Source of the DNA: an uncultured Thermoprotei archaeon
GTDB taxonomy: Archaea > Thermoproteota > Thermoprotei > Thermofilales > B15-G2
Assembly: GCA_965367815.1 (NCBI GenBank)
Contig: CBDUKN010000027.1
Span: 1-30,600, forward strand
DNA: 30,600 bases
Direction of reading: 5' to 3'
Positions 762-1,307 of this stretch are shown here, piece by piece. Every line of letters starts with the position of its first letter. Position 1 is the first letter of the stretch. The position numbers and the translations under genes are program-made. Below the pieces are notes generated by a model. It ran no database searches. It saw only the letters and a list, made by a program, of their open reading frames with translations, and was not told where the DNA came from.

Positions 762-767
762 AGAACA

Positions 768-826
768 CCCCCCATCTCCCTCATATCATAGTGGAGGGGG
801 GCGTCCTGCAGGGCGGGAGGATTTCT
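768..826 (-). mobile_element. Candidate IS200/IS605 left-end hairpin region upstream of tnpB
   Basis: Hairpin CGTCC-TGCA-GGGCG (802-815) within GAAATCCTCCCGCCCTGCAGGACG on the minus strand, which resembles archaeal IS605 subterminal hairpins as I recall them. A second stem (C6 768-773 / G6 796-801) covers the tnpB SD. No tnpA is seen upstream. Confidence 0.45.
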
Positions 827-919
827 GAAACACTTTAACGTCAATTACTCTAATTAAGCCTATATCTCACCAGAATATTTCTGATAAAACACTGTATTTT
901 ACTAGATTGATGTTTACTT

Positions 920-1270
920 AATACCCTGAAAGGGTAACCCGCCTGACCCCCCGAGGGGGTCGTAACACTTGTCGCACTCGTAGCCCCCCGCCCTCTCACG
1001 GGTCAAGGGCATTCTCTCCCCCGAGACTCATCGCGCCCGCTCGTCTCAGGGAACCCCTCATCGCCTAAGGGGGCTCGGGACACCCCCCTACCCCCATCGC
1101 AGTTAGCGGGGGTAGGGGGATAGGAGAGAGTAAAAAAGAGAAAGTAAACTGTTTGGGGGCTCCCTTAATATCTTGGGACTTGAGACATTCCCTCTAAAAG
1201 CCTCATCCCTCCTATTCTTCACAGGTCGGCGTCACCGAAGGTAGCCATTAAGCTACCCTCAGGTCATCCA
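920..1270 (-). ncRNA. Candidate structured ncRNA with K-turn/K-loop hairpins
   Basis: GC-rich island in AT-rich DNA with no ORF. Successive stems at 922-935, 945-961, 990-1010, 1019-1051, 1051-1076 and 1083-1119, and small stems near 1226-1257. On the minus strand 1019-1051 reads cccugagac-GA-gc(gggc)gc-GAU-GA-gucucggg, a consensus K-turn. TATA-like sequence near 1296-1303. Boundaries approximate. Confidence 0.6.
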
Positions 1271-1307
1271 ACTAAATAATTATATTTCTCGAAAAATATA
1301 TATTTAT

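Follow-up and report, generated by a model that had tools for sequence, protein, structure and literature searches.

TnpB elements are the ancestors of Cas12, and have been described with one RNA, at the 3′ end. Published accounts place this omega RNA downstream of tnpB (PMC10691335), as they do the omega RNA or right-end element RNA (reRNA) of Sulfolobus islandicus TnpB (10.1101/2023.03.06.531077). The subject here is the other end of such an element: a run of GC-rich hairpins upstream of a tnpB gene in an uncultured archaeon of the Thermoprotei (Thermofilales; B15-G2). The stretch analysed, “the window,” is the whole 30.6-kb contig C27 (CBDUKN010000027.1) of genome G000, an assembly of 2.45 Mb in 37 contigs with 38.6% GC and an estimated completeness of 99.4%. 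The hairpin run is part of a long, conserved, folded tnpB leader; it is neither a free-standing RNA gene nor a guide scaffold. By a small balance of the evidence, we lean towards reading positions 762-1279 (minus strand) as a composite leader at the 5′ (left) end of an IS200/IS605-type (IS1341-like) element that has tnpB only; the leader would act in cis as a translational throttle, docked by L7Ae and able to pair with the omega RNA.

IS200 of Salmonella offers one parallel: a 5′ stem-loop reportedly hides the ribosome-binding site of its transposase gene. Here too a leader hairpin at the left end, in the sense orientation, pairs a ribosome-binding-like run and the start codon, and the protection from read-through known in other insertion sequences provides an analogy for a leader that hides a start. 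This leader differs from that of IS200 in that it would regulate tnpB rather than tnpA, in its length (more than 500 nt), modularity and archaeal host, in its many K-turn-type hairpins, and in a segment antisense to its own guide RNA. The likeness to omega RNA systems lies in the 3′ omega RNA of the family, and in a 40-50 nt fragment of its scaffold held in the window; this fragment, however, is inverted, antisense, upstream of tnpB, and without the K-turn hairpin and 5′ part of the scaffold.

IStrons are TnpB transposons whose 5′ end carries a group I intron, which is in conflict with the omega RNA (10.1101/2023.11.20.567912; PMC4227781). The likeness is a large structured 5′ RNA module, co-oriented with tnpB and with sequence interplay with the 3′ guide region. 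Unlike the clostridial IStrons, the leader has an archaeal host, shows no sign of splice sites, and matches no group I or other intron model (none at E up to 10 over 600-2400, and no Rfam family at gathering score); IStron membership was rejected.

The archaeal K-turn RNAs to which L7Ae binds comprise C/D and H/ACA small RNAs (sRNAs) and also K-turns in 5′ untranslated regions, the last reportedly described by Daume et al. in 2017 (cited in PMC12817955). The leader resembles these in its tandem-GA hairpins with a 3-nt bulge and in the presence of L7Ae-family genes, but differs from the sRNAs in lacking C/D or H/ACA architecture, and its binding by L7Ae is a prediction. Palindrome-associated and miniature inverted-repeat transposable elements (PATEs and MITEs) are gene-less derivatives of IS200/IS605 elements. 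Plus-strand 785-961 does outline an internally deleted copy, with a start-region-like left part and a right-end terminus, but in BLAST searches the arrangement occurred only inside long leaders, always head-to-head with a full tnpB, and was not dispersed. A match to an insertion sequence end or MITE had been named as a finding that would speak against a new RNA; the region does prove to be part of an element's left-end leader with an inverted right-end fragment, but there is no dispersed MITE family, the sequence at 772-961 being found only in the leader of the contig C8 copy and its metagenome relatives.

Among the literature matches listed, supplements aside, no 5′ leader RNA, K-turn or L7Ae was described for TnpB systems. 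What appears new is a tnpB-only IS200/IS605 element whose leader, of unusual size and rich in K-turns, is antisense to the guide RNA of the same element. In this lineage of archaeal elements there is a second conserved folded module, at the 5′ end, hiding the start codon and, in its long form, complementary to the guide scaffold. Should the pairing and the binding of L7Ae prove real, this would be natural regulation of an RNA-guided nuclease, and would hint at a role for a host RNA-binding protein. Moreover, a GC island in an AT-rich hyperthermophile genome need not be a free-standing RNA gene; it may instead be a transposon leader or right end.

A conserved folded leader before tnpB

At window positions 916-1135 lies a GC island (0.57-0.68 GC, against 0.39 genome-wide), one of just 124 that the genome contains and among the longest of them. 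The original prediction described a run of GC hairpins here with three GCGAUG words and K-turn-type and K-loop-type hairpins, upstream of and co-oriented with tnpB; all are present, on the minus strand, with tnpB on the same strand at 3-761. It also proposed a structured, strand-specific RNA-like element, and this is borne out: the minus-strand fold of 900-1290 has an energy of -167.8 kcal/mol (z = -4.08, equalled by 0 of 100 shuffles), that of the plus strand is weaker (z = -2.28, 4 of 100), and relatives have compensatory changes. The RNA-like strand is that of tnpB sense. In this sense the leader consists of a module A, a hairpin H1, a segment X with three more hairpins, an inverted fragment of the element's right end, an AT-rich spacer, and a long start hairpin (Table 1).

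Homologues and covariation, both called for in the original prediction, were found. Homologous leaders precede six other TnpB genes of the genome, and an nhmmer profile of the leader finds nine places, all of them TnpB loci or remnants. Two unrelated TnpB families have such leaders, which occur in three forms: a short one (module A, H1 and the start), a long one (at least 7 copies), and a long form on the second family. Leaders are as conserved as the guide scaffold and more so than tnpB itself: among 15 type-2 pairs, identity is 83-96% for the leader (module A and H1), 83-92% for the scaffold, and 75-82% for tnpB DNA.

Compensatory changes were examined by leader type. The type-2 fold (8 sequences) has 50 pairs, with 94.5% of cells paired and 7 pairs (16 cells) changed on both sides, a covariation score and paired percentage reached by 0 of 500 shuffles; slid controls were 35-54% paired. 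For type 1, to which the window's leader belongs, hairpin P1 of module A has 12 pairs in five sequences, 6 of them with changes on both sides; outside P1, the module is conserved in sequence but has no informative changes. Across six long leaders, 4 of the 30 pairs in the start hairpin show double changes, and two G-U pairs, found in 6 of 6, would be C-A on the opposite strand.

In all copies read, tnpB begins with ATG or GTG at the same position, which follows the G-run in the 3′ arm of H1 by a few bases. In short leaders the H1-type hairpin stands directly before this start, covering the G-rich ribosome-binding-like run; H1 of the window is an orphan copy of that hairpin. Start codon and G-run are paired in both forms, by H1 in short leaders and by H1′ and an anti-start arm in long ones.

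These features suggest a mechanism. A divergent promoter in the AT-rich spacer at about 1271-1307 would drive transcription of the leader in the sense of tnpB. This spacer, presumed from archaeal promoter geometry to be a bidirectional promoter, has TATA-like runs in both directions, and together with the first codons of the divergent open reading frame (ORF) it is conserved 5′ of other leaders; the GGAUGA of module A is about 25 nt past a TATA-like run, near the presumed 5′ end. In the RNA, H1 or H1′ with the anti-start arm would hide the G-run and GUG, limiting TnpB translation in cis. The spacer at 836-909 may hold an internal tnpB promoter, in which case only read-through transcripts would carry the full anti-start arm, giving protection from outside activation. 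The K-turn and K-loop hairpins would be docking sites for host L7Ae, which might stiffen or stabilise the fold at high temperature. A 20-nt anti-scaffold segment could pair with the centre of the scaffold, in cis in a full-length mRNA or in trans with sister copies, and so either tie TnpB synthesis to the level of guide RNA or dampen assembly of the ribonucleoprotein (RNP).

A profile of tnpB and its right end (nhmmer) has three matches in the leader: the start region in direct orientation, an inverted start at 835-794, and an inverted right end at 953-927. The axis of this palindrome lies within the H1′ loop, and the composite probably arose by fold-back duplication there, followed by internal deletion, after which it would have been kept. 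Segment X has no similarity to the tnpB body by the same profile, and its interpretation as degraded tnpB was dropped. A small ORF in module A was likewise rejected; it is not conserved, and in the window copy stops after 13 codons.

Table 1. Features of the leader and its surroundings. Coordinates are those of the window, except where a locus is named.
Feature	Position	Strand	Remarks
tnpB, N-terminal 253 codons	3-761	minus	cut by contig end
Long start hairpin	743-826	minus	anti-start arm (inverted copy of start region) pairs H1′, G-rich run and GUG (761-759); microRNA-like Rfam matches only, all sub-threshold
AT-rich spacer	836-909	minus	conserved in alignment of 7 long leaders
Inverted right-end (omega-RNA scaffold) fragment	910-961	minus	nhmmer inverted match, E = 1.3e-4
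Segment X	962-1083	minus	H2 1074-1053; H3 (K-turn-type) 1050-1020; K-loop-type hairpin 1010-990; G-run
H1, 12-bp GC hairpin	1084-1119	minus	alignments; covariation in lower stem
Module A (type 1)	1128-1279	minus	nhmmer, module at 9 genome places; GGAUGA 1269-1264, hairpin P1 1262-1235, conserved GGGAUGAGGC block, closing T-rich tract with T6 run 1137-1132
AT-rich spacer	1271-1307		sequence; between start of divergent 216-aa ORF (1308, plus) and leader start
Divergent 216-aa ORF	1308-1958	plus	orphan family
Scaffold with K-turn, example 1	L029:1121-1246	minus	paralogue right end
Scaffold with K-turn, example 2	L028:3556-3676		paralogue right end
Scaffold with K-turn, example 3	L054:2050-2180		paralogue right end

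The GCGAUG words are at 1100-1095, 1064-1059 and 1034-1029 of the minus strand, spaced by 36 and 30 nt. Their total in the window is ordinary (6, against 5.6 expected); what is unusual is to have three within 72 nt on one strand. H3, placed at 1019-1051 in the original prediction, contains in its sequence the stem, 3-nt bulge, tandem GA and second stem of a K-turn: a GAGAC/GUCUC outer stem, GA, a 2-bp inner stem with a 4-nt loop, the bulge, and GA. The K-loop-type hairpin consists simply of a 6-bp stem and a 9-nt loop. Relatives of H3 vary at the GA steps: in its paralogue on contig C35 GG replaces the second GA, a variant contig has five changed bases inside H3 with both GA steps kept, and in C8-type long leaders, where the GAGAC/GUCUC stem is preserved, AA and UGA stand at these steps. 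A K-turn reading of H3 is plausible. The signature is also found in a type-2 leader hairpin and in a scaffold hairpin, both with covarying stems, and the type-2 consensus fold includes a textbook K-turn hairpin. The genome encodes two L7Ae-family genes, and the leader is probably bound by L7Ae.

The C35 relative (L030, 3574-3712) is an H1-H2-H3 unit without module A or tnpB, between genes for an XPD-like helicase and a HerA-like ATPase and in the sense of the latter; it looks like a portable leader module. A covariance model of this unit matched the genome at two places, both its own inputs; elsewhere it found only H1-type hairpins.

Known RNA classes do not account for the region. A scan of the whole window at Rfam gathering scores, one of the checks proposed at the outset, gave 0 families, and no tRNA was found; in a permissive scan of 600-2400 and three paralogous loci, the only matches were microRNA-like, C/D-like or H/ACA-like, all of them below threshold. 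An H/ACA-like RNA, as originally suggested, is contradicted by the lack of a pocket and by a best Rfam H/ACA score of 15.5 bits against a threshold of 35.6 (E = 3.8). The ACA said to follow the K-loop hairpin is there (972-970), but 18 nt downstream and not directly behind the stem. The GGAUGA of module A resembles a C box, but has no D box partner or spacing, and an archaeal C/D sRNA was rejected (best Rfam match 12.4 bits against 55, E = 4.9). Nor is this an independent new RNA class or gene, the region being part of the tnpB leader.

The element itself belongs to the tnpB-only IS200/IS605 group by its TnpB domains (OrfB_IS605 and TNB). The half-gene in the window is 62-65% identical to four full-length paralogues, one of which (C21a) matches PF01385 OrfB_IS605 at 33.6 bits (cut-off 30.5) and PF07282 Cas12f1-like TNB at 42.6 bits (cut-off 26.3); the genome has 11 TNB-domain matches above cut-off. 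The Y1 transposase (PF01797) has 0 matches genome-wide, while 6 of 14 control genomes were positive, and the TnpB element copies in this genome are non-autonomous. The second TnpB family (about 400 aa) is undetected by tblastn with the first, although PF07282 matches both; its copies with leaders are those at 39.9 kb on C21 and on C6. Two of its loci, C21:39856-41830 (with a long leader) and C15:10288-11700 (with none), have a right-end scaffold of their own with GAUGA-type loops.

The window's TnpB family was found only in the same genus (2 of 41 genomes, G000 included). In a BLAST search of 900-1300 against 40 relatives nothing was found except one 35-nt match (E = 4.4e-4), and a profile scan of the genome-contig database found nothing; the right-end pattern matched 10 loci there, one relevant but cut and nine of them chance bacterial matches. 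The H1 pattern led to 16 metagenome contigs, of which 12 low-GC contigs, all hydrothermal, have the same leaders and 4 high-GC ones are chance matches. By these searches, leader-bearing elements have a narrow distribution: one genus among the 40 relatives, plus hydrothermal metagenomes. An insertion-free (empty) site was sought in the sister genome G001 without success, and DNA contigs from four runs gave short pieces only, with no informative joint at the element.

Complementarity to the guide scaffold

A guide scaffold was among the functions originally proposed for the hairpin run. The family's scaffold, followed by a variable flank, is instead at the 3′ end of the paralogues, as had been expected for omega RNAs in general: about 115 nt long, it lies just 3′ of tnpB at seven other places (at two of them a tnpB remnant) and ends in GGGGTC, beyond which the copies diverge. 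The region 5′ of tnpB, with only its inverted fragment and no variable guide, was rejected as an omega RNA or reRNA scaffold. A hairpin of the true scaffold has a K-turn signature (3-nt bulge, GA, stem, then GA or AA), and its stem covaries in nine sequences, one pair being A-U in five and G-C in four and another C-G, G-C or A-U. This suggests a K-turn in an archaeal guide RNA, which might be read by L7Ae or by TnpB itself; no report of a K-turn in an archaeal guide RNA was found.

The 20-mer at 932-951 of the plus strand recurs unchanged in three scaffolds, those of copies C5, C7 and C26. It is on the strand opposite the window's tnpB, and the leader RNA would therefore be antisense to the scaffold; its counterparts at seven places are in tnpB sense and 3′ of tnpB (three identical, four differing by 1-2 bases). 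Positions 961-945 form a hairpin with a 3-nt loop where the scaffold has its K-turn hairpin, and 922-910 are antisense to the last tnpB codons.

Every long leader with a known right end (5 of 5) has 14-22 nt of perfect complementarity to its own scaffold, exceeding all 200 shuffles (maxima 11-13), and five short leaders have 8-11 nt, inside the shuffle range. The core is perfect over 19-22 nt while adjoining sequence drifts. The second TnpB family has an unrelated scaffold and its own matching antisense segment of 19 nt, and at locus L054 a one-base deletion in the leader is matched in the scaffold. The sequence beside the inverted fragment is conserved among long leaders. Two other interpretations of this segment were dropped: a plus-strand “mini omega RNA” with a target in trans, the best genomic match to its flank being 15 nt, and bulge-helix-bulge splicing, which was unconvincing (one leader-scaffold duplex, judged by eye).

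Several observations weigh against a conserved, L7Ae-bound throttle. None of the 13 listed sequencing runs is RNA, and the start, end and strand of the leader RNA are inferred from sequence. The G-run before tnpB is taken here to be ribosome-binding-like on general knowledge, as the 3′ end of the 16S RNA was not found in the assembly. A leader is not a requirement (none accompanies the C15 copy of the second family), and short leaders lack both segment X and the anti-scaffold segment. Segment X, the centrepiece of the original prediction, has a single paralogue in the genome (C35:3574-3712), so that H2, H3 and the K-loop are almost without comparative support, and C8-type leaders have no K-loop at the homologous position. 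A loose K-turn-hairpin pattern matches the genome 992 times (about 203 per strand-Mb), making the motif alone weak evidence, although H3 is third of the 992 by outer-stem length (11 bp). Several of the 12 metagenome loci are the same population or loci as the genome and thus non-independent. The complementarity is imperfect in some copies (2 of 19 mismatches in C8, 3 of 19 in L061), and what maintains it could be gene conversion between inverted repeats instead of function.

Alternative accounts of the leader

The alternative that survives best is a non-functional mosaic: a duplicated H1, an inverted start, an inverted right end and a stray segment X, left as passive debris of nested or fold-back insertions. 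It is unlikely in our estimation, but has real points in its favour. The parts of the leader are recognisable duplicates of the element's ends, a palindrome centred on the H1′ loop is the expected trace of a fold-back copying error, and both the single other copy of segment X and the existence of working-looking copies with short leaders or none would be natural for debris. Debris would not, however, be expected to have an architecture common to at least 7 diverged copies, or to be better conserved than the tnpB DNA that it precedes; nor does it explain why P1, the type-2 K-turn hairpin, H1 and the start hairpin have compensatory changes and G-U pairs that hold on the sense strand alone, or an antisense core that stays perfect amid drifting neighbours.

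As a second possibility, the long leader would be an “anti-omega” RNA, an L7Ae-scaffolded transcript encoded upstream of tnpB, with a 19-22 nt core that pairs with the central helix of its own and sister scaffolds and sets the amount of active TnpB-guide complex. This is a tentative proposal and a rather doubtful one. If true, it would make the RNA a transposon-encoded antagonist, or assembly checkpoint, of an RNA-guided nuclease, and L7Ae a host partner of archaeal TnpB systems.

A third possibility is a separate small L7Ae-bound RNA acting in trans, for example as an omega-RNA sponge, made from module A with or without H1 and segment X, while tnpB has its own promoter in 836-909. An end at the T6 run would give such an RNA a length of about 135 nt, and an end near 880 one of about 390 nt. 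The TATA-like run about 25 nt before GGAUGA, the T-rich tract past module A in all type-1 leaders, and the conserved AT-rich spacer with TATA-like words just before the start hairpin would suit this account, and the H1-H2-H3 unit on C35 stands alone before an unrelated ATPase gene. But short leaders run from module A and H1 straight into the tnpB start, leaving no room for a second promoter, and the T runs are just 3-4 long in most copies; we regard a separate small RNA as fairly improbable.

That the hairpins are DNA-level transposition signals, sub-terminal at the left end and recognised by a single-strand transposase as in IS608 or ISDra2, seems very unlikely. IS200/IS605 left ends do carry hairpins, the family is of that type, and in two copies the homology is preceded by TTTAC, which is target-motif-like. 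But PF01797 is absent from a nearly complete genome while control genomes gave matches, the left-end and right-end hairpins are dissimilar, more than 500 nt is far beyond known left ends, and the conserved G-U pairs would in DNA be weaker G-T. Least credible is the upstream guide scaffold of the original prediction, or a tracrRNA-like RNA, required by TnpB, whose antisense segment would base-pair with a “repeat plus guide” RNA from the right end: the complementarity of 5 of 5 long leaders and the co-orientation upstream of tnpB would suit it, but the scaffold at the 3′ end is of full size, bears a covarying K-turn hairpin of its own and stops sharply where the variable flank begins, the antisense segment is missing from intact copies whose leaders are short or absent, and the flank of the inverted fragment has no target elsewhere (best match 15 nt).

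Neighbouring features and minor observations

In the ancestral element, the divergent 216-aa ORF might have served as an accessory or mobility gene. Other type-1 leaders have its homologues or N-terminal remnants beside them in the same divergent position (by tblastn, at L053 and C6), and at L053 a homologue occurs twice in tandem (oriented 998-336 and 361-2). Its protein matched no Pfam family and had 2 and 4 homologues in two large protein searches (4 representatives among 1.84 billion proteins); a single-sequence fold has a mean predicted local distance difference test (pLDDT) score of 41.9.

On the minus strand, a 49-aa ORF at 850-999 overlaps the hairpins of the GC island; its product would be rich in Gly, Ser and Thr, and it is most likely spurious.

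Several contig ends of the genome carry adapter-like sequence, which we take to be of Nextera type: C5 (high end), C23:26-58, C29:17326-17358, C30:17074-17106, C32:11682-11714 and C35:10-42. The assembly is therefore incompletely trimmed.

A second GC island (0.66 GC) is found at 2094-2267 of the plus strand, about 140 nt 3′ of the 216-aa ORF. It is single in the genome, absent from the fetched metagenome loci, and without an Rfam family at threshold. Its several AAUGAAG, GAUGAAC and GUGAAG words, together with a strong hairpin, make it a candidate for a further K-turn-rich RNA.

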